Positions 4,990 through 51,772 of a stretch of 51,772 nucleotides of DNA are shown piece by piece. Location of the stretch: positions 1 through 51,772 of IMG/VR virus record IMGVR_UViG_3300044834_000093, one strand, 5' to 3'. The notes under the pieces are model-generated. The model ran no database searches and was not told the DNA's origin. It worked only from the letters and a program-made list of their open reading frames with translations. Position 1 is the stretch's first letter. Every line of letters starts with the position of its first letter. Made by a program: the position numbers and the translations under genes. The DNA comes from a virus. Its lineage: Duplodnaviria; Caudoviricetes.

Positions 4990-5013
4990 CCACAAACCCA
5001 TTTGAGGTTCGAC

Positions 5014-8601: not shown

Positions 8602-8675
8602 TGGGGAATAGTTCAACGGTAGAACATCGGACTCTGACTCCGAGAATCTTGGTTCGAATCCAGGTTCCCCAGCCA
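8602..8675 (+). tRNA. tRNA-Gln, anticodon CTG
   Basis: Acceptor TGGGGAA/TTCCCCA, anticodon arm TCGGA-ctCTGac-TCCGA, T-loop GGTTCGAATCC, encoded CCA. Confidence 0.97.
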
Positions 8676-13406: not shown

Positions 13407-13940
13407 TTAGCTGTCCTTCGTTGCCACTTTCGCAATCATCGACGTGAGCTGGTCGGACTTCTCGGCAGAACCGCGCGACGATCCGAACTCGAAGTTGAAG
13501 GCTTGGGTCAGCATGGTGGCTAGATTGCCCACAAGCCCGCCAAGGATAGCGGCGATGCCATCCGGCATGTCCTGGCGATAAAAGATGATGCCCAGAACGA
13601 TCACGATGATCGCAACAAAATTGCCGATTAGCATCACATTGGCGCGCGCATTGGTCCCACCCGAGAGCTTGCGCACCTCTACGTCTCGCCCGCGCGCGCT
13701 GATGGTGTCTTCCACCTGAATACGGTATTGCTCGGTGTCGGCTTGCAGCTTTGCTTTGAAGCGATCCGCCTTGCTGGCGTCGGCTGCGATCTGGGCCTGT
13801 ATTTCACCTGGATCGTCGGTGCCGAATATTTCCTTGGCCGCATTGACCACAGTTTCAGTGACGCTTTGCGCCTTGCTGCCGAGCAACATTCCGGCGATGG
13901 AAGGAACAAGATTGGCCGCGAGGCCGAGCAGTGCGAGCAT
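13407..13940 (-). CDS. Holin-like membrane protein
   Basis: D..SAR.R motif, two TM, F.FGSSRGS; follows the endolysin. Confidence 0.65.
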   Translation of the reverse strand: MLALLGLAANLVPSIAGMLLGSKAQSVTETVVNAAKEIFGTDDPGEIQAQIAADASKADRFKAKLQADTEQYRIQVEDTISARGRDVEVRKLSGGTNARANVMLIGNFVAIIVIVLGIIFYRQDMPDGIAAILGGLVGNLATMLTQAFNFEFGSSRGSAEKSDQLTSMIAKVATKDS

Positions 13941-13952
13941 TGGTATTCCCCT

Positions 13953-14609
13953 TTAGGCTTGCAAACTTTTCCAGGTGTAAGAACCGACCACACCGTCAGC
14001 CACCAAGCCTTTGCTTGTTTGATAGTTGATGACGGCAGCCAGCGTAGCGGTGCCAAATTCCTCATCTACTTTGAGCACAGCACCGTGCTTGTTCAGCAGC
14101 ACTTGCAGCCGCGCTACATCGGCGCCGGTTGCGCCTTTGCGGAGGATGGGAAAGGCTGCAGCCGGTGGCGCTGATACGGCAACAGCCGCCGGATTGAGCG
14201 TCAGCACCCAAGGCACCACGGAGTCATAAAGCGCCCGCTCCGGCCTGACCGAGATATGGACATGGTGATCGTGTGGATTCGTGCCGCTGTAAGCCCGCCA
14301 AGACCAACCATGATCGAAGCTGGCAATCTTGCGATTGGAGATGATGTATTTGATTCGACTGTCACGCGAGGCGCGCAGCATTTCGGCCAATTCTTCCGAA
14401 ACAATGCCGTGCGCCGGGTCGTTGGTGATGTCGATTGCCGATACCACCCCCACGCCGTCTTCATCCTTGAACCACGGATTGTGATCCGAGCTACGCGAGG
14501 CGTGCGCCTCGTCGCCTATCGAGCCGTCATTTTCCTTGTTCCGGTTCGGGGAGATAGCGTTGATCTGATTGCGTAGCTGAATAAGGCTCTTAGCCAGACG
14601 CCATGTCAT
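13953..14609 (-). CDS. Endolysin: Zn-peptidase (M15/LAS-like) + C-terminal peptidoglycan-binding domain
   Basis: SDHNP, AIDI, HVHIS; LRKG..G.DV..LQ..L...DGVVG..TW. Confidence 0.8.
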   Translation of the reverse strand: MTWRLAKSLIQLRNQINAISPNRNKENDGSIGDEAHASRSSDHNPWFKDEDGVGVVSAIDITNDPAHGIVSEELAEMLRASRDSRIKYIISNRKIASFDHGWSWRAYSGTNPHDHHVHISVRPERALYDSVVPWVLTLNPAAVAVSAPPAAAFPILRKGATGADVARLQVLLNKHGAVLKVDEEFGTATLAAVINYQTSKGLVADGVVGSYTWKSLQA

Positions 14610-37987: not shown

Positions 37988-38197
37988 TCACGGAAAATAC
38001 TCAGGAAGGTCTTTGATCTTGTCGTAGTAAGCGACTGCATCCTCTCTCGTTTTAAAGGTTTCAAGGCAGCGCCATGTCTTCAGACCAAGCCAATCTGTTC
38101 TCTCCTTGCAGAACAAGGCGAATGGCCACGTGCTCGGGCATGAGTCGCTGCGGTCTATCTTGAAGCGTGCGTTTTCCTCGCCATAAATCCCGTTCAT
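37988..38197 (-). CDS. Hypothetical protein
   Basis: GGAGG RBS, adjacent to the upstream stop. Confidence 0.6.
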   Translation of the reverse strand: MNGIYGEENARFKIDRSDSCPSTWPFALFCKERTDWLGLKTWRCLETFKTREDAVAYYDKIKDLPEYFP

Positions 38198-38572
38198 TCA
38201 CCCCTCCCCGTTATCCTCGCCAACCACAACAACAGCCGCCCTAACCACAAGCGCATCAGTCCCGGCTTTCGCTTTGGTGATTTCAAGCTCATGTCGATAA
38301 AGCCGTGCTTGGCGCTCACACTCGGCTTGATAGGCCATGCGAAGGCGCTGATAATTGAACGCGGTGATCCAAGCTGGTTTTCGGTAGCGCAAAGCCCAGA
38401 AGGTGCGCCACGGCACGCCGTACCTAGCCTCTAGCCGCTGCCATGCGTTTTCGAGGTCGCCGGGGCCGCGCGCTTCCGTGCGCGTCAATGCTTTGGCCCA
38501 TCCAGCGGCTTCATCAACAAGAACAGCGTCGGACATGGGTTCGTCCTGCAAAGAACTTTTGCACACTTGCAA
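38198..38572 (-). CDS. CII-position HTH regulator
   Basis: RGPGD.ENA..RL..RYGV.....W.LRYR.P; GGGAG RBS. Confidence 0.65.
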   Translation of the reverse strand: MQVCKSSLQDEPMSDAVLVDEAAGWAKALTRTEARGPGDLENAWQRLEARYGVPWRTFWALRYRKPAWITAFNYQRLRMAYQAECERQARLYRHELEITKAKAGTDALVVRAAVVVVGEDNGEG

Positions 38573-38998
38573 CTCTCCCTCTGCTTTGTTTGCTCGCGAT
38601 GAGAAACAACACAGAGGATTTGGAATCTTACTCGTTTGCCCCGATCAGCTTGGCAGTGGATCGGGTCGTGGAAGGCTTAGGCTTTACTAGAACGGCAGCC
38701 GGTGGAACGGCTGGACGCGGATACAACGTGATTAGGTTTCCGAAGAGGGTTTCTTGCGCGTCACGCGGATGCTGCGCAGAACCGTGTGCAAGGTGTCCAT
38801 CTGCTAGTTCTCCCGTTCCGATTGCTGAGGCGGGATCACCAGCGAGGTTCCCGAGTGGGAGTTGTCAAAATATCTCTTATGCCCCCTCTTAAACTCGCAA
38901 GGATTTGATAACCTTGAGCCCACCTTCCTTACCCGAGATGGTAGAATTGTCTGGTAGGCTTTCCCCGCTATGCCGCCGACGTTGGTACGGGGCGTGTT

Positions 38999-39277
38999 AT
39001 GGGGTGCGCGGGAATATCGCTCGTCGAGCCCTTCGCAGTGCAGGACGATGTTGTATCCGGCATCGATCACATCGAGCCGGTCGGAAAATCCCTGATACGT
39101 TTGTACCTTTACATCGATCACACCCCTATCGACGGCAGCCCTCCCGAAAGAGTGCTGGTGCGCAAGGTGGTGATTTCCCTGGACGACATGCCGAAAGCTG
39201 TCAGGAAAACGATCCGCTTCATGGCCGACCGGGGGATAGAGATTGGCCAGCGGGATTTGTCGAAGCTGCTGAGCTGA
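38999..39277 (+). CDS. Hypothetical protein convergent with cro
   Basis: LVEP.AV.D..VSG, globular composition, stops 2 bp from the cro stop. Confidence 0.6.
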   Translation: MGCAGISLVEPFAVQDDVVSGIDHIEPVGKSLIRLYLYIDHTPIDGSPPERVLVRKVVISLDDMPKAVRKTIRFMADRGIEIGQRDLSKLLS

Positions 39278-39279
39278 GG

Positions 39280-39498
39280 TCATTCGGCGGCCACCGTGTA
39301 TCCAAGGAATTGCGCCCGGCTCAGGCCGGTGACTTCTTCGATCTTTTCCCACTGTCTCTTTTGGGGCTCGGTGTCGCGCCGCTCCCATCGAGAAACCGTC
39401 AGCCCATCGACGCCAAGCCGGTCACCCAAGGCTTCTTGCGAAAGCTTTGGGAGCTGCGCATCGCGCCATTTCCGTAAGGGGTGATCTTCGTCTGCCAT
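39280..39498 (-). CDS. cro: Cro-like HTH repressor
   Basis: HPLRKWR, LSQEALGDRLGV...TVSRWE; divergent from cI. Confidence 0.85.
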   Translation of the reverse strand: MADEDHPLRKWRDAQLPKLSQEALGDRLGVDGLTVSRWERRDTEPQKRQWEKIEEVTGLSRAQFLGYTVAAE

Positions 39499-39508
39499 TG
39501 CGCCGCTC

Positions 39509-39536
39509 ACTATACAGAAAATGATGGCTGGCGCAA
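39509..39536 (-). promoter_or_regulatory. PR-like promoter/operator
   Basis: TTGCGC-16-TATAGT; 20 bp identical to the PL-like promoter. Confidence 0.8.
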
Positions 39537-39594
39537 GCCCCATCATCATTTCGGTAATAGTGCTTTAGTCACAATATGTTGGCACTATTGGCAC

Positions 39595-39915
39595 ATGGCA
39601 GGCACCACCAGGATCGGCCCGCGACGGCCTCGGAAGGTTTATCTTCAAGAATGGCGGGAAAGCCGGGGCCTTACCCAGAAGCAGCTAGGCGAGCGCCTGG
39701 GGGTCACTGACATGACCGTTTCCCGATGGGAGCTAGGTAGGGTGCTCCTCAATACAAACGTACTGGCGGCCTTCGCTGAGGCCCTGGGCATAGAACCAAT
39801 GGACCTCTACCGCCACCCAGATCATCCCAGCGCCGATGCCCTGCTTCGCGGGCAGACGCAGGACGTGAAAGAACAGGCTTTCCGGCTGATCGAAGCCATC
39901 AGAAAGGCCAATTAG
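39595..39915 (+). CDS. cI: CI-like XRE repressor lacking an S24 peptidase domain
   Basis: YLQEWRESRGLTQKQLGERLGV...TVSRWE; 106 aa; probably leaderless. Confidence 0.85.
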   Translation: MAGTTRIGPRRPRKVYLQEWRESRGLTQKQLGERLGVTDMTVSRWELGRVLLNTNVLAAFAEALGIEPMDLYRHPDHPSADALLRGQTQDVKEQAFRLIEAIRKAN

Positions 39916-39925
39916 CGGGGCTTTC

Positions 39926-40192
39926 ATGCCGATCATCGTCATTCTTGGCTTGATCGCAGCTTGGTATTTCGGGCTTTTTGAGAGCTTCCAGGGCCACACC
40001 TACCGGGCCGAGGTAGGTTATTTCCAAGGCAGCGAACGTACCTGGTATGTTGGCCGCGACAAAAGCCGCGAGGCCTGCACTGCCGAGGCTACGGCGCTTT
40101 ACAATTCCTATAACCGGGAATCGCCGGGCCGCGCCTTTTCCTGGGCTTGCCGCAAAATGCAGGGTGACCGGTTTTTAGACCGGGTACGCTGA
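39926..40192 (+). CDS. Membrane-anchored protein downstream of the repressor
   Basis: N-terminal TM, two Cys, 10 bp after cI. Confidence 0.7.
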   Translation: MPIIVILGLIAAWYFGLFESFQGHTYRAEVGYFQGSERTWYVGRDKSREACTAEATALYNSYNRESPGRAFSWACRKMQGDRFLDRVR

Positions 40193-40275
40193 GCAATTCA
40201 CAACCTGATTCTTCTGGAAATTACGTTTCCATTCAATAGGTTGTCATTCCTATAACATTTTTTGTCTATACCCTA

Positions 40276-40303
40276 TTGCAACTGCCATCATTTTCTGTAT
40301 AGT
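40276..40303 (+). promoter_or_regulatory. PL-like promoter/operator
   Basis: TTGCAA-16-TATAGT containing GCCATCATTTTCTGTATAGT; IHF-like ATTCAATAGGTTG at 40231. Confidence 0.8.
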
Positions 40304-40340
40304 CAATCCCGACGCTGAGATATTCAGACGGGAGTGGAAG

Positions 40341-40844
40341 ATGGTGACAACGGCCTCCACGGCAGACGGCAGTCTCACCACTGGTGATCAGAAGCCCTCA
40401 ATCGCGGCGCGCAAGAAAGTTTATCGCGCTGAGCGCCGTAACGATTTCATGGCCGACAGGCGCACGGTAGCGCCAGTTCATCGCAAAGCCTTCCGCTGGA
40501 AGGGAACGGCAGCCGTAAAGGAAGCCAGCACGCCGCCGGTTTCGTCAAACAAGCGAGACCGTTCCCCTCAAGCCGAACAGCGCCGCAAAGATCGCAGCGT
40601 CACGATGGATTTCACTGACGGCGTGAATGGCATCAGCCGCGCGCTTATCAACCACTCACTGCAAACGATCCAGAAGAAAAAGCCCAAGCGCGGCTGGGCG
40701 GCTAAGCGCAGAGCCACGCCATGGAAGGACACGACGACTGACAAAGAGCGCGGGCGTCACGCTTGGTTTCGCAAGGCAACAACCTCAGCGCCCGGATCAC
40801 CAGTCGGACGAGAGCCGAGCAAACAAAGGGAATTGTCCCAATGA
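40341..40844 (+). CDS. Arg/Lys-rich first early protein
   Basis: GGAG RBS, ATGA coupling to the next gene; both ends encoded by repeat elements. Confidence 0.55.
   Translation: MVTTASTADGSLTTGDQKPSIAARKKVYRAERRNDFMADRRTVAPVHRKAFRWKGTAAVKEASTPPVSSNKRDRSPQAEQRRKDRSVTMDFTDGVNGISRALINHSLQTIQKKKPKRGWAAKRRATPWKDTTTDKERGRHAWFRKATTSAPGSPVGREPSKQRELSQ
40346..40840. repeat. Inverted-repeat-bounded cassette A
   Basis: Left arm 40346-40392, right arm 40791-40840; the same arms recur at 47086-47343. Confidence 0.9.
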
Positions 40845-41194
40845 CCTCTCTTCCAGAACTCCCTACCTTCCATTTTATTTCCTTTTGTCAGCCAGCAACA
40901 GCATCGCGTGGAAGGTCAGAAGGCTTTTACGAGCTTTCCATGGAGCAGTCCTGTCATCGCCCGCAACTGCTTCGCGACATAGCGGGAACGCAGTTTGAAG
41001 ACATCGACAAGGTTTACGAAGCGGCGGATGGAAAATTTCATGACGTAACGCTGGAAACCGCAGAAGACGTGCTCGCCCTGGTGATCGCAGACGGCGGCGA
41101 TGTTCCCGATGAACTCCGGTTATGGCTGCAGGAAGTCATTGGAGTGAATGCGGTGGATCAAGCATTGGCTGAACAGCTGATGGAGCATGTGTGA
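40841..41194 (+). CDS. Acidic hypothetical protein
   Basis: DI...Q...I..V.E......DVT...AE; coupled genes. Confidence 0.65.
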   Translation: MTSLPELPTFHFISFCQPATASRGRSEGFYELSMEQSCHRPQLLRDIAGTQFEDIDKVYEAADGKFHDVTLETAEDVLALVIADGGDVPDELRLWLQEVIGVNAVDQALAEQLMEHV

Positions 41195-41700
41195 TGCCAC
41201 GAAAGCGAGCTAATCCACATAAAGCACCCGTTCCTAGAGAGCAGCATGGGCTTTCAAAAACCAAAGAGTTCACGACGTGGTGGGCGATGAAGCGGCGCTG
41301 CACTGAACCGACTGCGCCCGATTACGCCCGGTACGGCGGCGCTGGCATTACGGTCTGTGCTGAATGGATGAAAAGCTTCCTTGCTTTTTATAAGCACATC
41401 GGGCCAAGGCCGTCTGACGTTCACAGCCTTGACCGCATAGACAACACAAGGGGTTACGAACCCGGCAACGTTCGCTGGGCCACGCGCGTCCAGCAGGCCA
41501 ATAATAAAAATAACAATCACATCGTTGAATATAAAGGCGCGACGGTAACTGTAGCTGAGGCTGTTCGGCGAGCTGGCTCTATCATAAGTCGAGAGACAGC
41601 TCTCTGCCGCCTCAAAAACGGTTGGTCACCAGCTGCAGCCGTAGAAACTCCGCTTCTCTTTAAGCGCGATCCGTTAACCAGACGAAGGTTGGCGGTGTAG
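41191..41700 (+). CDS. HNH homing endonuclease-like protein
   Basis: HG.S.T.E...W..MK.RC, YGG.GI.VC..W, SLDRIDN..GYEPGNVRWAT. Confidence 0.9.
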   Translation: MMPRKRANPHKAPVPREQHGLSKTKEFTTWWAMKRRCTEPTAPDYARYGGAGITVCAEWMKSFLAFYKHIGPRPSDVHSLDRIDNTRGYEPGNVRWATRVQQANNKNNNHIVEYKGATVTVAEAVRRAGSIISRETALCRLKNGWSPAAAVETPLLFKRDPLTRRRLAV

Positions 41701-41702
41701 CC

Positions 41703-41894
41703 ATGTCCCTCAAATCCTCCATGACGTATGAGGCTCTTATAGCAGCGAGCATATCGTTGCTGGTGGAGGCTGTGGTTGTTCTTATGTTCTTTGCTGCTTT
41801 GTTTGTTTGGGTGGTTTTGTATTTGGACCATCAGCGGCATCACTCTGATCGCGGTCCTGCAATTAGCGTCTCTGAGCAAGGTGCAGGACGATGA
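41703..41894 (+). CDS. Small TM protein
   Basis: Hydrophobic segment, ATGA coupling. Confidence 0.55.
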
Positions 41895-42259
41895 TAGAGC
41901 ACCCACGTGAACTAAACGCCATCATCGAGAGCGCCCGTATTACCAACGATGACCACGGGCTACTGTCAGCATGGCTGACGCTCGACTACGGCGGATCGGG
42001 GCAGGGCTTTGGTGGATACTCGCTGTATCTACCGAAGAACTGCACGCATCACAATCCGAGCGGGCCGAACTACGCCGGACATTTTATCTGGCGTGTCATG
42101 GAAGTTGCTGGCGTATCGGAGTGGTCGCAGCTTCCGGGGAAGACCATCCGCGTAAAATGCGAACATACAAAGGTTCACGCCATCGGTCACATCGTCAAAG
42201 ACGATTGGTTTGATCCAAAAGCTGACTTCGAGCGCATGGGAGAAAAGACAATCCCATGA
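41891..42259 (+). CDS. Conserved hypothetical phage protein
   Basis: NA.I......DHG......[15 protein letters not shown]. Confidence 0.75.
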
Positions 42260-42606
42260 GCGTCTTCAAACAAATGCTGATCGACAGCATGGAGCGCCAC
42301 TATCCGTCCGCGCCCGGCTGGCAGCGCCATTCAGACACCAGCCATGCCGCCGCACAATCCATGCGCCCGCATTACACGGTGCAACAAAAGAGAATTGTGG
42401 ATTTCCTACAAGGGCAGGGCGTGACAGGCGGCACCTATACGGAAATCTGCTCCGGCACTCAATTAAGCGCGCCATCTGTCTGTGGCCGCATGGTCGAGTT
42501 GGTGAGGGGCAAGCACGTCATCAAATCCAACGACACGCGCGCAACGCCATCGAACCGGCAAGCCCATGTCTATCTTCACAAGGATTTTGCAGGGAGGGAG
42601 CAATGA
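42256..42606 (+). CDS. Winged-HTH protein
   Basis: DTS.AAA, G.T..EI.......SV.GR..EL. Confidence 0.7.
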
Positions 42607-42872
42607 GACAGTCAGATTATCCTCTTCCAAAATGGGATCATGAGATAGCGCCGTATCTGCACGCAATCACGTCGCACGCGCATTGGCTGTCCTATCACGG
42701 TCGCGGCGTTATCGCCGGGCTGACCATGCTTCCCGCCCGTCCGCAATGGCCAACGCAGGCAGAGGAAGCCTTGCAAAAGGTTGAACAGGAACTAACCGCC
42801 GCTCTGGAATTAACGCAGGAAGCGCGGCGCAAGTACGGCGAATTGCTGATCCTGAGCGAAGCAGCGGAGTAA
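42603..42872 (+). CDS. Hypothetical protein
   Basis: GGAG RBS before ATG 42603. Confidence 0.6.
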   Translation: MRQSDYPLPKWDHEIAPYLHAITSHAHWLSYHGRGVIAGLTMLPARPQWPTQAEEALQKVEQELTAALELTQEARRKYGELLILSEAAE

Positions 42873-42877
42873 GTATC

Positions 42878-43645
42878 ATGAACGTAGCTTTAGCCGAAAT
42901 TGGACATAACAAACCGCCGGAAGCTCTCGGCTTCGCCAGCGATACCATGATCTTGCTTTCCGATTGGATGAAAGAGCATCCGGTCATTCAGACCGCGCAC
43001 GACGCGCACGAAGCCAAGAAACTGCTGGACAGCGCAAAAGCTACTGCTGGCGACATTGAGGCCGAGCGCGACGGCAAGGTGCGCCCGCTGAACACCGCCA
43101 TTGCCGACATCAACTTCCGCTACAAGGCCGTCCACAACACCGACAGCAAAAAACCTGGGCTACTCGATAAGATCGTAAATGAACTGAAAGCCCGTCTGAC
43201 CGCTTTTGTGAAAGCAGAAGAGGCCAGGCGCGAACATGAAGCCGCAGCCAAGCACCATAATGCCGAGGAAGCCGAGCGCCTGTCGCTTGAAGCTGCCCAG
43301 CGGGAGCGCGAGGCAATCGACAATGCGCGCGCCGGAGAGCTTGGCGTCGATGTAACAGCGGTAGTTGTAGAGGCTGATGCCCTTGCTGCCGCTCATGCCA
43401 GGGCCGAGCGCGAAGCTGCCAGAGCTGACCGTGACGCGCACGTTAAGATTGGTGGCGGATGGGGCCGGTCGGTTTCATTGCGAACCAAAGAAACGCTCAT
43501 TCTGACCCACCCCATGGTCGCAATTAAAACGATGGGCGTCACAGACAAGATTCGTGAGGCGATCCTTTCCGCCGCGCGTGACTACAGGAGTGAGAAAGGA
43601 ACACTGCCAGAAGGCGTTGTATCTCAAACGATACGGGAAATTTAA
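42878..43645 (+). CDS. Coiled-coil protein of the recombination module
   Basis: IGHNKPP, E.ER..KV.P, helical core. Confidence 0.75.
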   Translation: MNVALAEIGHNKPPEALGFASDTMILLSDWMKEHPVIQTAHDAHEAKKLLDSAKATAGDIEAERDGKVRPLNTAIADINFRYKAVHNTDSKKPGLLDKIVNELKARLTAFVKAEEARREHEAAAKHHNAEEAERLSLEAAQREREAIDNARAGELGVDVTAVVVEADALAAAHARAEREAARADRDAHVKIGGGWGRSVSLRTKETLILTHPMVAIKTMGVTDKIREAILSAARDYRSEKGTLPEGVVSQTIREI

Positions 43646-43668
43646 CCAGACACCACAAGGACAAGCAC

Positions 43669-44055
43669 ATGAACATCGAAGAAGCATTCCCCTCTAAATA
43701 CCTGAAAGCCGCCGATCTGAAAGGAAGCAGGACAACGGTGAAAATGGATCGCGTCGAAAGCGACACGGTTGGCGATGACAACAAAGTCATCCTGTACTTT
43801 CAAGGCAAGGAAAAAGGCCTCGTCCTGAACGTCACCAACAAAAACATGATTGTCGATACCTACGGCCCGGAAACTGAAGACTGGATTGGGCAGCCGATCA
43901 TTCTTTACGAGGCGATGGTGCAGTACCAGTCGAAGATGGTCCCGGCCATCCGCGTCATGGCACCGCCACGCACGCCGACACGAACTGCACAGCCAGCGGA
44001 CCGCAACCAGGGCGACCCGCGCACCAATGACGACATGAACGACGTGCAGTTTTAG
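43669..44055 (+). CDS. Putative ssDNA-binding/recombination protein
   Basis: FPSKYLKAADL, LVLN.TN, acidic aromatic-ending tail DDMNDVQF. Confidence 0.65.
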   Translation: MNIEEAFPSKYLKAADLKGSRTTVKMDRVESDTVGDDNKVILYFQGKEKGLVLNVTNKNMIVDTYGPETEDWIGQPIILYEAMVQYQSKMVPAIRVMAPPRTPTRTAQPADRNQGDPRTNDDMNDVQF

Positions 44056-44057
44056 CC

Positions 44058-44258
44058 ATGGAAAAACCCGCCGCCTTCAGCGCGAGCTATTCTGACTGGA
44101 AGGTCATCAAAGGCCGCAAGGTCATTCAGATAATCTTCGAAGTCCCGATGGAGGCGGCTGGCCATGCCTACAATGTTCTAGGCGGTATGCCGAACTTTGG
44201 CGCGGATGAATGGTTCGCTATCGCGCGATTACAAAAGCCTGAGAAGGCAAGCGAATGA
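44058..44258 (+). CDS. Hypothetical protein
   Basis: A.YSDWK..K.R.V.Q..FEVP. Confidence 0.65.
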   Translation: MEKPAAFSASYSDWKVIKGRKVIQIIFEVPMEAAGHAYNVLGGMPNFGADEWFAIARLQKPEKASE

Positions 44259-44608
44259 GACGTGAGTTTCCAGCCAAGGTTAAAGCAGCAGCTCTCAAAC
44301 GCTGCATGGATGCGAAAGGTATTCCGCATTGCGAAGGCTGTGGGATCGAGCTGACGGCCGGAAACACCGCTTACGATCACGACAAGGCTGATGGGTTAGG
44401 CGGCGAGCCTTCCCTGGATAACTGCAAGGTTCTCTGCATCAGGATTTGCCACAAACGAAAGACCTTCGGCCAAGACAATCCCCGCATGCAGAAAGCAGAC
44501 CGACAGCGCAAAAGCTCATTCGGGATTAAGGCAAAGGCCCGCTCTTTACCTGGAGGCAGAAATTCCCCGTTCAAAATCAAGATCGGTGGGGGAGTGGAGA
44601 GACGATGA
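44255..44608 (+). CDS. HNH endonuclease
   Basis: CEGCG...YDH......GG.....NC.VLC...CH..KT. Confidence 0.85.
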   Translation: MRREFPAKVKAAALKRCMDAKGIPHCEGCGIELTAGNTAYDHDKADGLGGEPSLDNCKVLCIRICHKRKTFGQDNPRMQKADRQRKSSFGIKAKARSLPGGRNSPFKIKIGGGVERR

Positions 44609-44672
44609 CCGAAACAGAAACAACATGCGCCTTCCTCTCAGAACTCCCCTACGTGGCGCTGGGGAGTGGGGC

Positions 44673-45089
44673 GTGACTGAAACAATCCTAATCAAAGGCG
44701 AGCGTCACGTTGTCACACAATGCGGGTCATGCGGAGTTTGGCATACCGTGCCGGAAATCGTTTTCAACTCGCACAAACGAGAGGGCGGGTTTCACGGTTG
44801 TCCAAACGGGCATCAACGCGGATGGGTCAAGGGCGAAGAAGAAATTGAGCGCGAAAAAATCCGCCGCGAGCGCGACCAACTAAAACAGGACGCTGCCAGG
44901 TTGGCGGAAGAGATCGCCTCAGCAAATGCACGCGCTGAAACAGCCGAGCGAAAGGTACAACAAGCCAAGAGACGCGCGGTAGCTGGTGTCTGCCCGTGCT
45001 GCACCCGCACCTTTGTAAACGTGCAGCGACACATGAAGTCCAAGCATCCGAATGTTGTTCCGTTGGAACAAAAGGCGGCACGGCCATGA
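44673..45089 (+). CDS. Zinc-finger/coiled-coil protein
   Basis: CGSCG, CPNGH, CPCC.R.F....RHM..KH; GTG start after GGGAG. Confidence 0.7.
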   Translation: MTETILIKGERHVVTQCGSCGVWHTVPEIVFNSHKREGGFHGCPNGHQRGWVKGEEEIEREKIRRERDQLKQDAARLAEEIASANARAETAERKVQQAKRRAVAGVCPCCTRTFVNVQRHMKSKHPNVVPLEQKAARP

Positions 45090-45216
45090 CCACCCATACC
45101 CCAGCAACACCCGCTCTTGGTGGAGAGGTGCAGAGAATAGATGCGGACTTGAACCGTCTCGTCGCTAATCGCGTAGGTGCAGTTAGGAACGCTGAGCAAG
45201 GTGCCAGGAGAGCAAG

Positions 45217-45678
45217 ATGACAAAGCCGAAATTGAAACTGCCTTCAACAGCAACGGGGCGCCGCAGGCTCTTGAAGCTTGCCGATCTGCTTGAAGCGGAT
45301 GCCAGAAAGAAACGAGGCATCAGCTTCAATTTAAACACAGTGGGGACAACTATTATGTGGCTCGATAGCAGAAAGCCCATTGCACTAGATTGCGGCACGG
45401 AGGCTTGCGCTATGGGCCTTGCTGCAATCTCAGGAGCCTTCAAGCGCCAAGGGTTGTCCTACAAAATAATTGGCCGCTTCATCGAAACAACGCTCAACGG
45501 AAGAGTGCAAGGCTACGACAAATCGGCGATGGACGTATTCAATCTCTCCATGCAAGAAGCTGACTTTCTTTTCACGCCATGTTCATACCCCCAGGAAATT
45601 CGGCTTGGTGCGCCCGCCGAACGCTACGTCGCAAAACGCATCCGTGATTTCGTTGCCGGAAAGGCAGCGCCAACCTGA
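45217..45678 (+). CDS. Conserved hypothetical phage protein
   Basis: LLKLADLL, CGT.ACA.G.A; AGGAG RBS. Confidence 0.7.
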   Translation: MTKPKLKLPSTATGRRRLLKLADLLEADARKKRGISFNLNTVGTTIMWLDSRKPIALDCGTEACAMGLAAISGAFKRQGLSYKIIGRFIETTLNGRVQGYDKSAMDVFNLSMQEADFLFTPCSYPQEIRLGAPAERYVAKRIRDFVAGKAAPT

Positions 45679-45728
45679 CCGCCCCGCCGCCGGCAGCAAC
45701 CACCAACCTCACGTGAACTGGATACTCA

Positions 45729-46091
45729 ATGTCTGAACAGAAACTAAGTCTAGGGGGGAAGGGAGTGGAGGCGGGGCCTTACTACGCCAAGGACGGCCTT
45801 GTTTGGAAGCACCCTATTGTAAAAGAGAACAAAGGAGGCGGCACGACTATCACTATCGGCTTCCCCATTTGTGAGCCGCACGACGCTGTAGGAGTAGAAG
45901 CTGCGGAAACCATTGCGGCCTTGATGAACCTCGGTGACGCCGCGCCTGCCATGCAGGCGGCGCTCATCTCAGCTCGACCGTATGTCGAAAGCGCTGCCGA
46001 CGACGCTCTTCCCAATCCTGCTTCCGAAGCACTTGCGTTGCTGGACGCCGCTCTCGCCCTCTCCCAATCCAAGGGAGGGGCGAATGACTGA
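45729..46091 (+). CDS. Mosaic early protein
   Basis: AAP.M..AL and AALALS linker. Confidence 0.6.
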   Translation: MSEQKLSLGGKGVEAGPYYAKDGLVWKHPIVKENKGGGTTITIGFPICEPHDAVGVEAAETIAALMNLGDAAPAMQAALISARPYVESAADDALPNPASEALALLDAALALSQSKGGAND

Positions 46092-46356
46092 ACCAAATCT
46101 TGGCGAGCCTTGGGCATTCATCGCTCATAAGAAGGGTTGTTTAGGCGGAGTTGCCGCAGCGAACCTAACTGAAAAGGAGCTGCGAGAATTTTTGGGAGAT
46201 TTTGCAGGCAGAGGTTATGCGATCCTCACGGTGCACAGCCGAGACGAATATAGCGCCGCTCTTATGGCTCTTGCCGCCTCCCCATCCCCCGGATCACCAG
46301 CTCAGAGCAAGACGAGCAACGAGGACGCCCTCGCAAAAACGGAAGGCGGCGTTTGA
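46084..46356 (+). CDS. Hypothetical protein ending in an orphan right-arm repeat
   Basis: GGAGG RBS before ATG 46084; PGSP arm at 46288. Confidence 0.6.
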   Translation: MTEPNLGEPWAFIAHKKGCLGGVAAANLTEKELREFLGDFAGRGYAILTVHSRDEYSAALMALAASPSPGSPAQSKTSNEDALAKTEGGV

Positions 46357-46682
46357 TGGCCGAATTTCACCGTTCCAAATTGCTGGCGCTGTCTGATGTC
46401 GAAGTCGGGAAGCTGTTTAAGCAGTTCATCGGCCAGATCGACGATTGGGCGAACAAGCAATGGTCAGACAAAGCCGAATTGATAGTGGGGCTTTCTTTTA
46501 TGGCGTGCGCTCAATTGGTGAAGCAGGCGCACGACTGCAACGCTAACACGCTCATGATGACGCTAATGGATGTCACCCTTGAAGGTGGTTCGGCTGGCGA
46601 TTGGAAACTGACACTCAAGCAGATTAAGCCGCCGTCCTGCAAATCTCCCCGCCCCACCCACCCCAGAGGGGAAGTGAAATGA
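46356..46682 (+). CDS. Hypothetical protein
   Basis: TGATG coupling. Confidence 0.6.
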   Translation: MAEFHRSKLLALSDVEVGKLFKQFIGQIDDWANKQWSDKAELIVGLSFMACAQLVKQAHDCNANTLMMTLMDVTLEGGSAGDWKLTLKQIKPPSCKSPRPTHPRGEVK

Positions 46683-47797
46683 CGGATCTGATCGAGCGGC
46701 TGCCTCCAATTATTTGTTCGCAAGGCGGCATTCCGTACAACAAAGCGCACCTTGACGCCAAGGATGCTCGGATAGCCGAACTGTCAGCCGCCCTCAAAGC
46801 AAAGGCAGCCGCCCTCAAAGGGGAGCGACTTGCCGACGCGATAGAAATCTCTGCGCTCCACGAGCAAGTTAACGCCGCCGAATCCCTACTCGCCTCAGTA
46901 AGAAAGACGGCGATGGAGGAGGCAGCGCAGACTGCGAACGCGGCGAACAGCGATTTCCACGACGAGCAGAAAAGCATGGACTATGTGTTTGGCCACGCTG
47001 ATGCCTGCGACAAAATAGAACGCGCCATCCGCGCCCTCGCTTCTTCCTCTCCCCCAAGAGAAGGGGAGGGAAGTATTAAGCCGGAGACAACGGCCTCCGC
47101 GTTTCCTAGCAGTCTCACCACTGGTGATCAGAGGGTGGAGGATGCTCTTCTCGCTGCGCTGCTAAATGTTCGAAAGATTATCTCAGAAGCGGCGCTGACG
47201 GGGTTCAACTGTAACGATGGCGATTGGGTTGATCGCCTCTTCTTCAGCCAACAGAAAACTAGCGCCGCTATCGCTAGGGCAACAAACAAAGCCCCCGGAT
47301 CACCAGTGGCCAACTCTCCGAGCAACGAGAGGTCATTGTCCCATCCCTCCTCCCCAGACCCAAAGCAGCAAGACCAAAGCCGGTGGCTAAACGATCTACT
47401 CCGGGCCGCCGAAGCATTCCGCGGGGCGATGGTTGAAAGCGGGGCGCTAATCCGCACGCCGCAGAACAAGTATTTGGCGCAATTACGCGCGCTCGAATGC
47501 GCGCTCAATCCGCTGAATTATACTTTCCCGCCAGACCCAAAGCAGCAAGCGGGCGGGCCGGAGGGGTGGCAGTGGGTGCCGAAGGAGCCAACCAAGGAAA
47601 TGATGAACGCCGTTTGGGCGGTCGCGATGGCAGAGCATTATCCAGTCTTTTCTCCTGAAGCTTTATGCAAAATGCACCGCGCCATGCTCGCCGCCTCTCC
47701 CCCGCCACCAGGATCAGCAGCGGGGAGTGGGGAGAACCACGTTGCAAACTCAGTCCAAGAGCAAGCAGCGCCTCGTTCCTCAATGGAGGGCGCATGA
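46679..47797 (+). CDS. Multi-module mosaic early protein
   Basis: Modules separated by repeats; PEGWQWVPKEPT.EM..A module. Confidence 0.7.
   Translation: MTDLIERLPPIICSQGGIPYNKAHLDAKDARIAELSAALKAKAAALKGERLADAIEISALHEQVNAAESLLASVRKTAMEEAAQTANAANSDFHDEQKSMDYVFGHADACDKIERAIRALASSSPPREGEGSIKPETTASAFPSSLTTGDQRVEDALLAALLNVRKIISEAALTGFNCNDGDWVDRLFFSQQKTSAAIARATNKAPGSPVANSPSNERSLSHPSSPDPKQQDQSRWLNDLLRAAEAFRGAMVESGALIRTPQNKYLAQLRALECALNPLNYTFPPDPKQQAGGPEGWQWVPKEPTKEMMNAVWAVAMAEHYPVFSPEALCKMHRAMLAASPPPPGSAAGSGENHVANSVQEQAAPRSSMEGA
47086..47343. repeat. Inverted-repeat-bounded cassette B
   Basis: Left arm 47086-47132, right arm 47294-47343, perfect 12-bp inner stem. Confidence 0.9.
47354..47549 (+). 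repeat. 19-bp in-frame direct repeat pair
   Basis: CCAGACCCAAAGCAGCAAG at 47354 and 47531. Confidence 0.9.
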
Positions 47798-48306
47798 CGG
47801 ATTTGCTGATCAAACGCAGCGCCATCATCTCGGATTGCGGTCTATACCGTTACGAGGCGCGGCGCATTTGGGATGATAGTTTACCGCCCTACGTGTCGGG
47901 GATGCTCAATCCCTCTATAGCCGATCACGAGATAGATGATCCGACCGTAATTCGGAATTGGCGGCGCGCGGAAGTCAACGGTTGCGGCTCCTTGATCGTT
48001 TGGAATCTGGGGGCAGGCCGCGCAACCGACCCCAATGACTGGAAGGCGATGGGTGATCCTATCGGCCCTCAGAACGATTGGCACATCCGCCGCATTCTAA
48101 CCGAGTGCCGCGAGCGCAGCGGGATTGCCGTAGTCGGGTGGGGTGCGCACGGCTCATTTATGGGGCGGGACCGTAAGGCCCTCAGCATTGCTGCCGATGT
48201 CGGGGTGACCTTCCGCTGCCTTGGCACCACGAAAGATGGGCAGCCTCGCCATCCACTTTACATCGCGAACGCACAGCCTCTTGTCGAATGGAGACGAGCA
48301 GCATGA
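47794..48306 (+). CDS. DUF1643 family protein
   Basis: A.IS.CG.YRY...R.W, MLNPS.AD...DDPT, GWG.HG, G.PRHPLY. Confidence 0.9.
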   Translation: MTDLLIKRSAIISDCGLYRYEARRIWDDSLPPYVSGMLNPSIADHEIDDPTVIRNWRRAEVNGCGSLIVWNLGAGRATDPNDWKAMGDPIGPQNDWHIRRILTECRERSGIAVVGWGAHGSFMGRDRKALSIAADVGVTFRCLGTTKDGQPRHPLYIANAQPLVEWRRAA

Positions 48307-48677
48307 CAACGAAACCAATTGAGGAACGCGAGGCCGGCTGCTTTGCCTCTGAAAGACCAACGCAGGTCTCCCCCGCCTTCGCAGAAATGGTCGAGGCGCT
48401 GAAGGTTGCGGAAGATACGATCAAAGGGCACTTTCAGGACGATTGTGGCGATTGTTGTGCTGCACTTGCAGTGATCAGCGCCGCCCTCTCCCGCTCCCCT
48501 CAATCAGCGCCGGTTAGGAAGGTGGGGGAGGAGGAGATTGCGCGGGTGATCGCGAAATGGCGGTTCGAGACGATAGCTGCATTCGACGAAATGACAACAA
48601 CACCAAGCAAAGTAACGGAGCCGGATAGAAGCCTAGCCCGCGCCGTCCTTCGTCTCCTAGCAGAAAGGGAGGGGTAG
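48303..48677 (+). CDS. Mosaic early protein
   Basis: ATGA coupling; AALSR linker. Confidence 0.6.
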   Translation: MTTKPIEEREAGCFASERPTQVSPAFAEMVEALKVAEDTIKGHFQDDCGDCCAALAVISAALSRSPQSAPVRKVGEEEIARVIAKWRFETIAAFDEMTTTPSKVTEPDRSLARAVLRLLAEREG

Positions 48678-48746
48678 ATGCGCATCACCTCTGAGACATG
48701 CAAACCGTGTTCGCCGTGCGCGACTTACTCAGCGGCATGATTGAGA

Positions 48747-49214
48747 ATGGGAAATGAACCACACTGGTTCCTCACAAAGGATGGAGACGTGTCTTGTTAC
48801 TCGCTCTTCGAGCGACACTATTCATCCGTCAAGAACCGGAACCGTAAGCAGCGGCAGTTCGTCGGACCAGGAGAAAACATCGTCCTCAGAACAGCGCGAG
48901 CTGATGCCATGTTCGTCTGGCGAAAATATATCGACGACACAGAGCCGAAGCAGAAAGGCATCGAGTGCGCGGTGTTCCGAAACGAGGGCGAAATCCTCTC
49001 GTCCGAGCTTATCCGACAGGCTGACGCCGTTGCTGATTGCGCGTGGCCTGGTGAAAGGCACTACACCAAAGTCAATCCGCCGGCAGTTAGGAGCCGAAAC
49101 CCGGGCTTCTGCTTTATGGCCGCTGGATGGAGGAAATGCGGAATGACAAAGGGGGGATTGTTAATCCTCGAAAGAAGCACATACCCCCGCGCGACGGACG
49201 CACCGGCCAAATAG
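48747..49214 (+). CDS. Putative Mom-like (GNAT-fold) DNA modification protein
   Basis: L..RHYS, FRNEG..LSSELI, S.NPG.CF.AAGW...G.T resemble Mom-family motifs. Confidence 0.45.
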   Translation: MGNEPHWFLTKDGDVSCYSLFERHYSSVKNRNRKQRQFVGPGENIVLRTARADAMFVWRKYIDDTEPKQKGIECAVFRNEGEILSSELIRQADAVADCAWPGERHYTKVNPPAVRSRNPGFCFMAAGWRKCGMTKGGLLILERSTYPRATDAPAK

Positions 49215-49229
49215 AAGGATGAAGGAAAG

Positions 49230-49679
49230 ATGAAAGAGTTGATCGCCAAATTAGAGAATGCTCACGGACCAAGCCGAGAATTGGATTGTGCTATCGCGGT
49301 TGCTGTCGGCTGGTTCGTCGCTCATCCCGGCCAAAAGTCCGAGCCGGTGGATTACGTTGATGTGCGGCAGCCCGGCCAGAACACTTGGCCTGGTTACGGC
49401 GGCGATCAGCTTGTCCCACGCTTGACAGAATTTATCGACGACGCGCTGACGCTGATGCCAAAAAAGTTGCCTGAGCATTCCGAAATCAACATCAGCATCG
49501 AAGGTGACCGCTCTTTTACGAGCGTGTCCATCGACGTGCGTGGAGAACATTCGATGGCCGACACGGTAGCGGAAGGCTCGGCGTCAGCCCCAGCCCTCGC
49601 CATCTGTATTACCGCGCTGAAAGCTAGCGCTGCCATCTCCGCCGCAACCACGCCCGACGCGCAGGGCAGGACGGGATGA
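49230..49679 (+). CDS. Hypothetical protein (ABA-sandwich-like)
   Basis: GPSRELD..IA, P..T...D.A..L, PALAIC..AL. Confidence 0.65.
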   Translation: MKELIAKLENAHGPSRELDCAIAVAVGWFVAHPGQKSEPVDYVDVRQPGQNTWPGYGGDQLVPRLTEFIDDALTLMPKKLPEHSEINISIEGDRSFTSVSIDVRGEHSMADTVAEGSASAPALAICITALKASAAISAATTPDAQGRTG

Positions 49680-50098
49680 GAAAAATGAGCAGGTCTGGAT
49701 ACGTCGAAGATATGGAAGATCAGTGGCAGCTAATCAGATGGCGCGGTGCCGTGAATCAAGCAATCAAAGGTGCTCGCGGCCAAGCCTTCCTGAAGGAAAT
49801 GCTTGCTGCCTTGGATGCTCTGCCGGAGAAAAAACTGATCGCCGGAGAACTGGAAGAAGATGGCGCGGTGTGCGCGCTCGGCGCTGTCGGAAAGGCACGC
49901 GGCATTAACATGGAGGGGCTTGACCCCGAAGAGAGCGAAAAAGTTGCTGCGGTCTTTGGTATCGCTCCGGCCCTCGCGATGGAGGTCGTCTACATGAATG
50001 ACGAGCGTTGCTTCGGCACGCCGGAAAACCGCTATGCGGAAATGAAGGGATGGATAGAAGCAAATATTTTGCCAGCCCCCATCGAGGCAAAGCGATAG
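49676..50098 (+). CDS. Conserved hypothetical phage protein
   Basis: MSRSGY, RGQAFL.E...ALDA.P.K.L, VCALG. Confidence 0.75.
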   Translation: MRKMSRSGYVEDMEDQWQLIRWRGAVNQAIKGARGQAFLKEMLAALDALPEKKLIAGELEEDGAVCALGAVGKARGINMEGLDPEESEKVAAVFGIAPALAMEVVYMNDERCFGTPENRYAEMKGWIEANILPAPIEAKR

Positions 50099-50447
50099 CT
50101 GCGCATGGCCAGGAAGGGATGAGAAGATGGTAGACGACGAACTGACTTCTGAAGGAACGCGGTTGGTGAAAGCGTGGCTTGGTGCACAGGACGAGGTAGA
50201 GCGCGCGAAGTCGCGTCTTAGAAGCGCGGAGTGCGATCTGGCAAACACGCAGAAAGCCCTCGCAAAATGGATGCTGCCGGAAGACGCGAAGCCAGGAGAA
50301 AAAATCGCCGTTTGGTATGTGGATTCGCTCATCCAGGTAGAGGTGCCGCTTCAGGGACACATGACCATACCTGTTACAATTCGCAAGCGAGGCAGGAGCC
50401 TTCATGCTCGCTGACCAAATCGAGGCAAAGCGATAGCTGCGCATGGC
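50081..50447 (+). repeat. 29-bp perfect direct repeat pair flanking a gene
   Basis: ATCGAGGCAAAGCGATAGCTGCGCATGGC at 50081-50109 and 50419-50447. Confidence 0.95.
50127..50414 (+). CDS. Hypothetical protein within a direct-repeat cassette
   Basis: W..P.DAK.GEK..VW; bounded by the repeats. Confidence 0.7.
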   Translation: MVDDELTSEGTRLVKAWLGAQDEVERAKSRLRSAECDLANTQKALAKWMLPEDAKPGEKIAVWYVDSLIQVEVPLQGHMTIPVTIRKRGRSLHAR

Positions 50448-50751
50448 AGATGAGCAAGGTCCGGTGAAGAAAAGTTTGTCAACTATCGGCATCGCGCCTC
50501 GGCTCCTGACGCGGGAGCAAGCGGCAGCCTATTGTCAAGTCTCGACCGAGATTTTTATTGCTCGCTGCCCGGTACGCCCTGTGAAGATGGGGGAAACAGT
50601 GCGTTCACACCGATGGGACATCAAAGAACTGGACCGATGGCTTGACAGCCTCTCCGGCGAAGCCCCGACAATCGCCTCGAACGGTCAACAGTGGATCGAT
50701 CGGCTCGGGGGAACTAATGAGGGTGGTCGTGCGCGGCGTGAAACAGTATAG
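50443..50751 (+). CDS. xis: Excisionase-like HTH protein
   Basis: PRLLTREQAAAYC..S...F and RWD..ELD.W.D, overlapping the integrase start. Confidence 0.75.
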   Translation: MADEQGPVKKSLSTIGIAPRLLTREQAAAYCQVSTEIFIARCPVRPVKMGETVRSHRWDIKELDRWLDSLSGEAPTIASNGQQWIDRLGGTNEGGRARRETV

Positions 50752-51772
50752 GTCAAAAGGAAAGACCTATTGCTATCACCGGCTGACCGGCAAGCGCATT
50801 GCCGCCGCGCCAGGAACAGCAGAGTTTTTTGCCGAGATCGAAGGGCTGAACTCGGCAACAAAACTAATCCTGCCGCGCGCTGGCACCCTCGGAATGCTGC
50901 TCGGTAAATACCGAGCGAGCGTCAAATTTGCTGAGCTAGCGCCGCGCACGCAAGCCGACTATCGCCGGATCATGGATTGGCTGAAGCCGCTGGACACAAT
51001 GGCGCTCTCAATCATCACACCGCCGTTCGCCGCAGGGTTACGCGACAAGGCCAAGGCTGCACATAAATACCGTTTCGCCAATTACGTTCTGTCCGTGCTG
51101 TCGGCGGCGCTGAGCTGGGGTGCGGAGCATGGCCACATCGATACCAATACGATCAAGGGTCACGTCAAGAAAGCTCCACGACCCAAGGGCATGCCGCAGC
51201 GTAATCGTCCATGGACAACGGATGAGCGCAACACTGTTTTGCAAGAGGCACCGCTGCATCTGAAGGTGCCGGTGGCCATGATGCGATGGGCTGGACTGCG
51301 AACCGGCGATGCACTGATTGCGCCAAAATCATCCTTCGACGGAACAGCCATCGAAATCAGGACAGGCAAAACCGGCCAGCTCGTATGGCTCCCCTGCCCG
51401 GTTCCACTAAGGGCGGTCCTTAAGGCGGCTCTCACTAAGCATCCTAACGCGATCACGCTGGCGACGACATCTAGAGGGCGGCCTTGGACCGGCGGTGGCT
51501 TCCGGGCTTCTCTGGCGAAGTTCCTGGGGAAGCTGGTGGCGGCGGGGCGGATCGGGAAGGGGCTGTCACCGCACGGCCTACGACATTCCATGGCCGTCGA
51601 TTTGCGGGAACTAGGCTTTGATGAACGCACCATTGCCGACTTCCTCGGCCAATCTCAAATTGAAACGGCTCGCGGCTATGCTCGCGGTGCCGATCTACGA
51701 AAAAAGATGACGGCGACGGTGAAAAAGTTAGACATCAGCTTTAAATCTGCAAAGAAATCGGTAGCGGGTTAG
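50717..51772 (+). CDS. int: Tyrosine integrase
   Basis: GLR.GD, KT, HGLRH, LGQ (Gln at the second His position), catalytic Tyr in RGYAR; N-terminal arm-binding domain. Confidence 0.95.
   Translation: MRVVVRGVKQYRSKGKTYCYHRLTGKRIAAAPGTAEFFAEIEGLNSATKLILPRAGTLGMLLGKYRASVKFAELAPRTQADYRRIMDWLKPLDTMALSIITPPFAAGLRDKAKAAHKYRFANYVLSVLSAALSWGAEHGHIDTNTIKGHVKKAPRPKGMPQRNRPWTTDERNTVLQEAPLHLKVPVAMMRWAGLRTGDALIAPKSSFDGTAIEIRTGKTGQLVWLPCPVPLRAVLKAALTKHPNAITLATTSRGRPWTGGGFRASLAKFLGKLVAAGRIGKGLSPHGLRHSMAVDLRELGFDERTIADFLGQSQIETARGYARGADLRKKMTATVKKLDISFKSAKKSVAG

Follow-up and report, generated by a model that had tools for sequence, protein, structure and literature searches.

The idea that phages evolve by exchanging modules reportedly goes back to the original papers on lambdoid phages, and relaxed homologous recombination by phage recombinases has reportedly been published as one way in which mosaicism arises. 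An account of linkers at module boundaries outlines the proposal that short sequences conserved there are the recombination sites behind this mosaicism (PMC3029335). In T4-type phages, the promoter-early stem-loop (PeSL) cassettes are described as small repeated motifs around non-essential ORFan genes of a plastic early region, with a proposed role as substrates of modular shuffling; in the same description, they are intergenic promoter-plus-terminator units in direct orientation that yield mini-circles (PMC2839356). Rickettsia palindromic elements (RPEs) are portrayed as self-palindromic units of ~150 bp that occur in many unrelated genes of a bacterial genome (PMC10969869), and a report on Cluster K mycobacteriophages describes SAS, untranslated 13-bp motifs of unknown function upstream of gene starts, together with the ESAS inverted repeats of 17 bp with spacers of 4–13 bp (PMC3203893). 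Here, we analyzed the complete 51,772-bp provirus record IMGVR_UViG_3300044834_000093 of IMG/VR (hereafter the window, labelled G000 in comparisons), whose early operon contains inverted arms around unrelated cargo. All arms are copies of one nucleotide element of ~55 bp, designated E, which is carried by five viral records: the window, G001, G002, G003 and G004. E most likely marks joints of gene swapping, and would be an atypical form of a known theme, with no new mechanism behind it.

The arms had been noticed in a first-pass annotation of the window, and were recovered as described there. The left arm (GACAACGGCCTCC-N10-GCAGTCTCACCACTGGTGATCAGA) occurs exactly at 40346–40392 and 47086–47132, with no matches in 100 shuffles, and the right arm (CCCGGATCACCAG-N12-CGAGCAA) at 40791, 46288 and 47294, with no matches of the reversed control pattern. 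When up to two mismatches are allowed, the right-arm 13-mer has eight matches, three of them exact, against 1.44 expected, and none of 100 shuffles reaches eight. The right arms at 40791 and 47294 extend to ATTGTCCCA, and the copy at 46288, which had been termed an orphan, stops short of it. The inverted cores of the first pair are ACTGGTGATC/GATCACCAGT, at 40380–40389 and 40795–40804, and those of the second pair are CCACTGGTGATC/GATCACCAGTGG, at 47118–47129 and 47298–47309. The core-to-core distances of 405 and 168 nt are each a multiple of three, and the arms are in frame in a 167-aa open reading frame (ORF) at 40341–40844 (MVTTASTADGSLTTGDQ...APGSPVGREPSKQRELSQ*) and in a 372-aa ORF at 46679–47797. 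In both pairs, the in-frame cargo bracketed by the arms is unrelated.

Every left arm and the reverse complement of every right arm fall into one coherent alignment of ~55 bp, spacer included, with the left arm corresponding to E in forward orientation (E+) and the right arm to the reversed element (E-). E is formed by an outer box (GGnGACAAYnnCCTCC), a spacer of ~16–19 nt and a core (CTGGTGA(T/A)C), and is not itself self-palindromic. Its sole invariant stretch is CTGGTGA within ACTGGTGATC, kept in all 12 copies. The outer box is absent from the right arm R3 and from both right arms of G002, and the spacer of the G001 copy is longer by 10 bp, about one helical turn. An nhmmer model built from ten copies, with the two G002 right arms left out, also recovered these two, and found 12 copies at an E-value of at most 1.5e-5 (five in the window, three in G002, two in G003 and one each in G001 and G004); the next-best match has an E-value of 0.64. 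The positions of the window copies and of associated features are collected in Table 1.

Table 1. Positions of the E copies, cargos, junction islands and related features in the window.
Feature	Position	Strand	Basis or remarks
E+ L1 (left arm 1)	40342–40395	+	nhmmer 45.2 bits, E-value 1e-12; exact pattern match; translation
E- R1 (right arm 1)	40788–40841	-	nhmmer 32.0 bits; sequence
E- R3 ("orphan")	46285–46333	-	nhmmer 28.2 bits; outer box absent
E+ L2 (left arm 2)	47083–47136	+	nhmmer 51.3 bits; exact pattern match
E- R2 (right arm 2)	47291–47343	-	nhmmer 41.2 bits
Cargo 1, 405 nt	40390–40794	+	encodes the body of a small, basic protein whose family can be recognised
Cargo 2, 168 nt	47130–47297	+	C-terminal fragment of a small phage protein family
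372-aa ORF P0003	46679–47797	+	in frame: segment A, junction hairpin, E+, fragment B, E-, segment C
Junction island	46066–46097	+	97% with G002; ribosome-binding site and ATG of ORF 46084
Junction island with R3	46254–46324		71 bp, 97% with G002; upstream genes unrelated in the two phages
Junction island	46641–46683	+	43/43 with G002; translated in the window (KSPRPTHPRGEVK*), past a stop codon in G002
Junction island	47691–47732	+	42/42 with G002; followed by a DUF1643 cassette that is absent there in G002
Further colinear G002 islands	48369–48403, 48479–48513, 48635–48734	+	mostly stop/start junctions
Further colinear G002 islands	49184–49238, 49644–49682, 50073–50130	+	mostly stop/start junctions
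Sigma-70-like early promoter (TTGCAA-16-TATAGT)	40276–40303	+	ends 38 nt upstream of the ATG of the first early gene
Phage exonuclease-family gene, candidate recombination function	42878–43645	+	phrog_10477, E-value 1.3e-11

The relationship between the arms was analyzed by local alignment of the 53-nt arms with the reverse-complemented arms, using a null of ~20,000 random pairs of 53-nt windows (mean 6.7, standard deviation 1.46, maximum 17) and leaving the left arm of G002 out of account. The pair L2–R2 scores 20 and the pair L1–R1 scores 12, and the similarity spans the whole arm, beyond the cores, in agreement with the inverted homology that had been claimed. The best inverted matches cross genomes, with scores of 26 for L2 and 22 for L1 against the right arm of G003. 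Because these matches lie between genomes, the arms look like diverged copies of one sequence and not like co-evolving partners.

These scores bear on the proposal that E+ and E- pair in the early transcript with the cargo looped out, which is a possible but doubtful explanation. In such a stem, the CCUCC of E+ would occlude the downstream Shine–Dalgarno (SD) sequence and start codon located in the outer box of E-, resulting in long-range translational coupling or repression or in a site for RNase III processing; a cis-RNA switch like those of P1 C4 or P4 would be a special case. The complementarity of arms within one operon that the P4 seqA/B/C or P1 C4 type would need does exist in silico. 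The minimum free energy and centroid folds close the left with the right arm along its whole length in both pairs, and the core helices have predicted pair probabilities of 0.66–1.0 (first pair) and 0.58–1.0 (second pair) in contexts of up to 1.3 kb. The outer boxes of R1 and of the G003 right arm comprise an SD-like run and the next start codon, to which the left outer box is complementary, and the orientation of the copies agrees with the direction of transcription, the minus-strand copy of G003 included. The long-range stem suggested in the first-pass annotation thus folds in silico, but pair-specific covariation is absent, since the partners score 12 and 20 as against 22–26 between genomes. 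Six of the 12 copies (R3, its G002 orthologue, the G001 and G004 copies and both copies of G003) have no partner in the same operon, so that half of the arms do occur unpaired, which the annotation had itself listed as counting against its proposal. The G003 copies lie in divergent operons and have the same RNA sense, and in the orthologous pair of G002, the right outer box is gone and a change from GATC to GAAC is uncompensated. The folds of the whole segments are weak (z -2.1, with 8 of 200 shuffles as good, and z -0.8, with 23 of 100), local folds are not significant (z -1.9 to +1.3), and the only Rfam match in the region 38000–51772 is a microRNA with an E-value of 0.63.

The two orientations of E encode unrelated peptides, TTAS..SLTTGDQ and PGSPV..SN. 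L1 and L2 are the same at all 37 box positions, with 12 of 12 codons identical, whereas their spacers agree at only 2 of 10 positions. The copies in L1 and G001 are identical at 24 of 24 positions, while the window and G001 share only 89 aligned nt. A copy of G003 (38487–38545) is located between two minus-strand genes, mostly past the stop codon of a gene that matches phrog_1229 (E-value 3.4e-18); its overlap with this gene is confined to the final codons and the stop, and it is mostly untranslated. The unrelated peptides, the identical boxes and the mostly untranslated G003 copy indicate that E is conserved at the DNA or RNA level and not as a peptide, as judged from sequence comparison. Conservation of the peptides only, which would have spoken against a nucleotide element according to the first-pass annotation, is not what was found. 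It is hardly credible that the tails TTAS..SLTTGDQ and APGSPV.. are conserved as functional linkers or interaction tags. The arms are in frame in most copies, as such a role would imply, and the most diverged copy, that of G004, which has both synonymous and non-synonymous changes and retains the core, keeps T-G-D and several other residues with three synonymous changes. However, the peptides depend on the orientation of E, the conserved codons of L1 and L2 are identical next to a spacer that differs at 8 of 10 positions, the G003 copy at 38487 is untranslated, the stretch shared with G001 lies amid almost no other common DNA, and the tails are found in none of the 16 cargo homologues.

The copies are ordered with respect to genes. 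All seven E- copies share one sense relative to local transcription, and all five E+ copies have the opposite sense. E- is located at the 3' end of a gene in five of seven cases (R1, R3, the G002 orthologue of R3 and both G003 copies), and is read through inside long fused ORFs, at the end of a module, in the remaining two (R2 and its G002 orthologue). R1 is read on the plus strand as APGSPVGREPSKQRELSQ*, and its outer box has AAGGGA followed by an ATGA stop/start overlap with the ORF at 40841–41194; the outer box of the G003 right arm (42343) likewise consists of an SD-like run and an ATGA overlap for the next gene. R3 constitutes the C-terminal tail of the ORF at 46084–46356 (…AASPSPGSPAQSKTSNE…). 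R2 is translated in frame throughout (APGSPVANSPSNERSLSH), has CCCATCC in place of the ATGA junction and leaves the frame open. As for E+, two of the five copies start no more than 14 nt from the ATG of the first early gene, namely L1, which begins 1 nt past this ATG and encodes VTTASTADGSLTTGDQK, and the copy of G004. Their locations are equivalent, in the first early gene downstream of repressor genes that are homologous (70% nucleotide identity) and of the promoter-like site (40276–40303 in the window), and the two gene bodies behind them are unrelated. The G001 copy starts ~38 nt into its ORF, and L2, which encodes ETTASAFPSSLTTGDQR, lies in the interior of a long ORF, as does its orthologue in G002. 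Just ahead of L2, a hairpin predicted at 47043–47073 (CTTCCTCTCCCC/GGGGAGGGAAG) contains an SD sequence and is a strong stem in the fold.

The sigma-70-like promoter of Table 1, upstream of the operon, is the sole plus-strand promoter-like site in the region 39000–51000, and no terminator-like or promoter-like site of this region coincides with any arm. Compared with PeSL cassettes as they are described, E has no promoter-like or terminator-like site and is translated and inverted, and the shuffling supposed here would be similar in outcome (PMC2839356). The element resembles the SAS and ESAS motifs, as reported, in that these are nucleotide motifs tied to gene starts, some of them imperfect inverted repeats, that are common to related phages; by contrast, E is translated, stands on both sides of genes and has inverted copies 168 nt to 3.8 kb apart (PMC3203893). 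The promoter match is also the right copy of a 28-nt inverted repeat, 89% complementary, at 39509–39536 and 40276–40303, which flanks two plus-strand genes, one of them helix-turn-helix repressor-like. The repeat is probably a duplicated promoter/operator unit of an immunity switch, and G004 has a promoter region similar to the one at 40276–40303.

Homologues of both cargos indicate that the arms are add-ons to ordinary genes. A search among 1.84 billion representatives returned 13 homologues of cargo 1, all of which align to query residues 26–153 only, and none of the 13 has the arms. The product of the first early gene (40341–40844) is a very basic, Arg/Lys-rich protein, with no Pfam or PHROG matches. 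The domain of cargo 2 occurs without arms in P0006 and P0007 (E-values of about 3e-15 and 4e-15) and in P0005, so that none of these three is armed; P0006 and P0007 carry the precomputed label PF27050, which is absent from the Pfam copy used. Full-length members of the cargo 2 family end right where E- begins, and E+ cuts into their conserved NARLIAAAP region. In G001, a full-length relative has E+ as an N-terminal extension outside its phrog_1273 match. Given that cargo 2 is a fragment and the arms are add-ons to an ordinary family, the 372-aa ORF is an in-frame patchwork. Its counterpart in G002, P0004, is a longer fusion of 547 aa (G002 3505–5148) that includes a segment homologous to the window ORF at 48288–48677. 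Since the genes at 46679–47797 and 48288–48677 are separate in the window and fused in G002, proteins appear to fuse or split at junctions that are read through. A back-translated peptide scan of viral contigs found no relatives of P0003, and a protein search found two. Other phages have different cargo at these same junction sequences.

A comparison of the window with G002 reveals 1669 aligned nt in 18 high-scoring segment pairs (HSPs), 13 of which are shorter than 100 bp and at least 90% identical. These junction islands, 25–71 bp long and 90–100% identical, all lie in the early operon, are colinear and coincide mostly with stops and starts. E is itself a member of this set. Longer homology is limited to stretches of 130 bp at 92%, 544 bp at 85% and 334 bp at 74% identity, the last in an unrelated upstream gene; apart from these three, the islands are the only DNA common to the two phages. 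Most cassettes between the islands are unrelated at the protein level, and two proteins that are homologous at 31% identity terminate in different junction tails. No other genome pair has more than one comparable short HSP, and a 31-nt island probe matched G002 alone. To our knowledge, the density of islands (about 13 colinear in 4 kb) is higher than elsewhere. As in boundary sequences as they are outlined, short conserved junctions are found here between dissimilar phages, with different modules between the same junctions; the locus differs in that its junctions are partly translated as C- or N-terminal tails and in that E is reused in both orientations, several times per genome (PMC3029335).

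Several of the islands have further features. The gene at 47665–48306 belongs to DUF1643 (E-value 1.7e-31) and has its closest DNA matches in Rhizobium plasmids; it looks like an inserted cassette, since its two flanking islands are only 93 nt apart in G002. In the islands at 46040–46085, 46646–46682, 47043–47073 and 47691–47732, a C-rich run goes together with a G-rich ribosome-binding site that serves the following gene, and the C-rich runs are translated as Ser/Pro-rich tails, such as SPPREGEG and SPRPTHPRGE. These C-rich/G-rich islands could form hairpins that sequester the SD sequence. A second junction motif, CAGGAnGGGATGAGAA, precedes a start codon in direct orientation at two consecutive gene boundaries, 49667–49686 and 50110–50129, and is also found in G002, at 606–625.

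We favor the reading, at about an even chance, that E and the islands are conserved linker modules at gene boundaries, where cassettes would be swapped in frame by homologous recombination. The islands would serve as homology patches, and ordinary genes or gene fragments would be exchanged between them, probably by homologous recombination of the phage or the host. The operon holds a candidate recombination function, the exonuclease-family gene, as well as two HNH endonucleases. E- stands at the end of a gene or module, and its translation forms a Pro/Ser-rich tail; in R1 and the G003 right arm, which keep the outer box at a gene end, it provides the SD sequence and the ATGA overlap of the next gene. 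E+ is positioned at a start codon or what seems to be a former start, or within ~40 nt of either, and its translation extends the N terminus. Because the upstream reading frame would have to reach the coupled start of the next gene, and because junctions are read through as protein tails, the cargo would be required to stay in frame. The inverted orientation of E would then be historical rather than mechanistic. Modular phage evolution in its boundary-sequence version, as outlined, predicts just the pattern observed (PMC3029335).

In the debate on phage mosaicism, homologous exchange at short conserved junctions is set against random illegitimate joins followed by selection. The early operon of the window is an unusually clean case for exchange at junctions, in which two phages have little in common except near-identical boundary islands of 25–71 bp. 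Two peculiarities are added: tails are translated from the junctions, where genes fuse and split, and one junction element is found in both orientations around cargo. If exchange at the islands is true, the locus would constitute a tractable natural system for the minimal homology needs of phage recombinases, and would show an origin of ORFan genes and chimeric proteins.

Several points weigh against this reading. Recombination at the islands is deduced from sequence comparison, and only five records carry E. The linker idea neither needs nor explains an inverted E around cargo, given that direct repeats or unique linkers would serve equally. Perfect boxes around a variable spacer of fixed length, as in L1 and L2, look more like a bipartite binding site or a helix pair, and in silico, the arms are strongly predicted to pair as RNA, with pair probabilities of 0.58–1.0. 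The islands could also be expression signals that were retained after illegitimate gene replacement, rather than substrates of exchange. A further proposal, which has a slender chance of being correct, is that E acts as an orientation-reversible, ORF-neutral docking element whose inward-facing cores are a recombination hotspot or a nuclease-stop signal. A break in the cargo would be resected to both cores and repaired from a co-resident phage with other cargo that lies between the same arms. If true, this would be a homologous-recombination analogue of the integron that works inside reading frames.

The perfect boxes may alternatively be the DNA site of a protein, with the two boxes as a bipartite recognition site for a recombination hotspot, a nuclease or a regulator; the inward-facing orientation around cargo would then direct break repair or regulation. 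This is unlikely, although the conservation of both boxes around the spacer, the additional helical turn in the spacer of G001 and the invariant core are in accordance with it, as is the presence of HNH endonucleases and an exonuclease gene in the operon. The 8-mer CTGGTGAT is found seven times in the window against ~1.5 expected, always within 38.8–47.3 kb, and the core shares 6 of 8 bases with the Chi octamer, which we take as a lead only; the octamer is that of E. coli and may not be that of the host. On the other hand, a blastp comparison among G000–G003 found no protein common to all E-bearing records, the outer box is dispensable, as it is missing from R3 and both G002 right arms, and the 13-bp palindrome around the core is lost in R1, R3 and the G004 copy. 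The distribution of the 8-mer in the window also lacks the genome-wide spread of a Chi-like motif. Two copies of CTGGTGAT lie outside E, at 38835 on the minus strand and at 41078 on the plus strand.

Two other candidates were rejected. The 13-bp palindrome TCACCAsTGGTGA, considered as an operator, has eight matches with up to three mismatches, against 8.06 expected. An invertible coding switch of the Gin/Cin or shufflon type is excluded by the in-frame stop codons that would arise after inversion between the cores, four in the first pair and one in the second.

An attC site is a compact imperfect palindrome (about 55–140 bp, R''-L''...L'-R') on the 3' side of each cassette, with the core sites RYYYAAC / GTTRRRY, and IntI recombines it as folded single-stranded DNA; an integron further has IntI next to it, together with attI and Pc. 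E is similar to attC in combining imperfect inverted repeats with promoterless cassettes in an array. Its arms, however, surround the cargo at distances of 168 nt, 405 nt or 3.8 kb from each other, single arms fold non-significantly, and the purine/pyrimidine pattern of the outer boxes, (A)GACAAC and (G/A)TTGTCC, misfits the attC core consensus. Pfam searches of the 79 window ORFs yielded 27 families. Among the 25 that were listed, one Phage_integrase is the sole recombinase, encoded by an ORF that is cut by the window end, 3 kb past the last arm; no transposase, whether of the RAYT/Y1 or the insertion sequence (IS) type, was found at an E-value of at most 1e-3, and no integron context was recognized in this set. 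Within this scope, the earlier statement that no transposase is present holds. The capture of cassettes through folded single-stranded DNA, which had been suggested by analogy with attC or repetitive extragenic palindromic (REP) sequences, is not supported: there is no compact site, the attC core consensus is not matched, a Y1/RAYT transposase and an integron-type context were not found among the families listed, and the family of E is tiny.

It is also very unlikely that E is a non-autonomous mobile element, in which the E+...E- pair would resemble a miniature inverted-repeat transposable element (MITE) or a composite transposon, or E alone would be a small insertion tolerated in frame, and which would depend on an enzyme acting in trans. 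Inverted homology over ~50 bp holds for the flanking repeats, which bracket two unrelated genes, homologues of both cargos exist without arms, and E is present in five phage records that have little or no further DNA in common. In addition, the in-frame translation resembles that of RPEs, which are portrayed as nucleotide repeats that are tolerated in frame and add a peptide segment, as E does (PMC10969869). In comparison with RPEs, E is 55 bp long and not self-palindromic, and its 12 copies in five phage records are at or near gene or module ends rather than scattered. Against a mobile element, neither pair of arms has a target-site duplication evident by eye, the 79 ORFs contain no transposase within the families listed, and no pair of empty and filled sites was found. 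REP sequences, bacterial interspersed mosaic elements (BIMEs) and MITEs are characterized by many dispersed copies with terminal inverted repeats and target-site duplications and by a cognate transposase, as against which E has its 12 copies, no duplication flanking either pair and no transposase among the families listed.

Searches for further copies returned few loci. An exact left-arm core search of viral contigs gave one locus, the right-arm pattern gave two, and a two-box pattern gave 12, of which four contain E (two in G003 and one each in G001 and G004) and the other eight score at most 11 bits. Genome contigs of 185,579 species genomes, searched with the exact inner-box pattern, contained one partial, chance-like match in Streptomyces (18 bits), which together with the small number of copies also argues against a mobile element. 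Metagenome contigs (241 million records) contained seven loci, all chance-like at 12.4 bits or less. No significant match to E was found in GenBank phages and PLSDB plasmids, and four further loci with relatives of the repressor lack E.

The window shows weak similarity to plasmid genes of Rhizobium and Bradyrhizobium, which is the only clue to its host, and has a GC content of 56.1%, compared with 60.6% in G002. An ORF at 831–2615 encodes a 594-aa protein in which an N6/N4 DNA methylase domain is fused to an Mrr-like or inactive restriction endonuclease domain, and a tRNA-Gln (CTG) gene is located within the provirus at 8602–8675. In G004, an early-operon ORF at 13682–14356 (L035) consists mostly of pentapeptide-like repeats (ANLAGA/YLAGA...).

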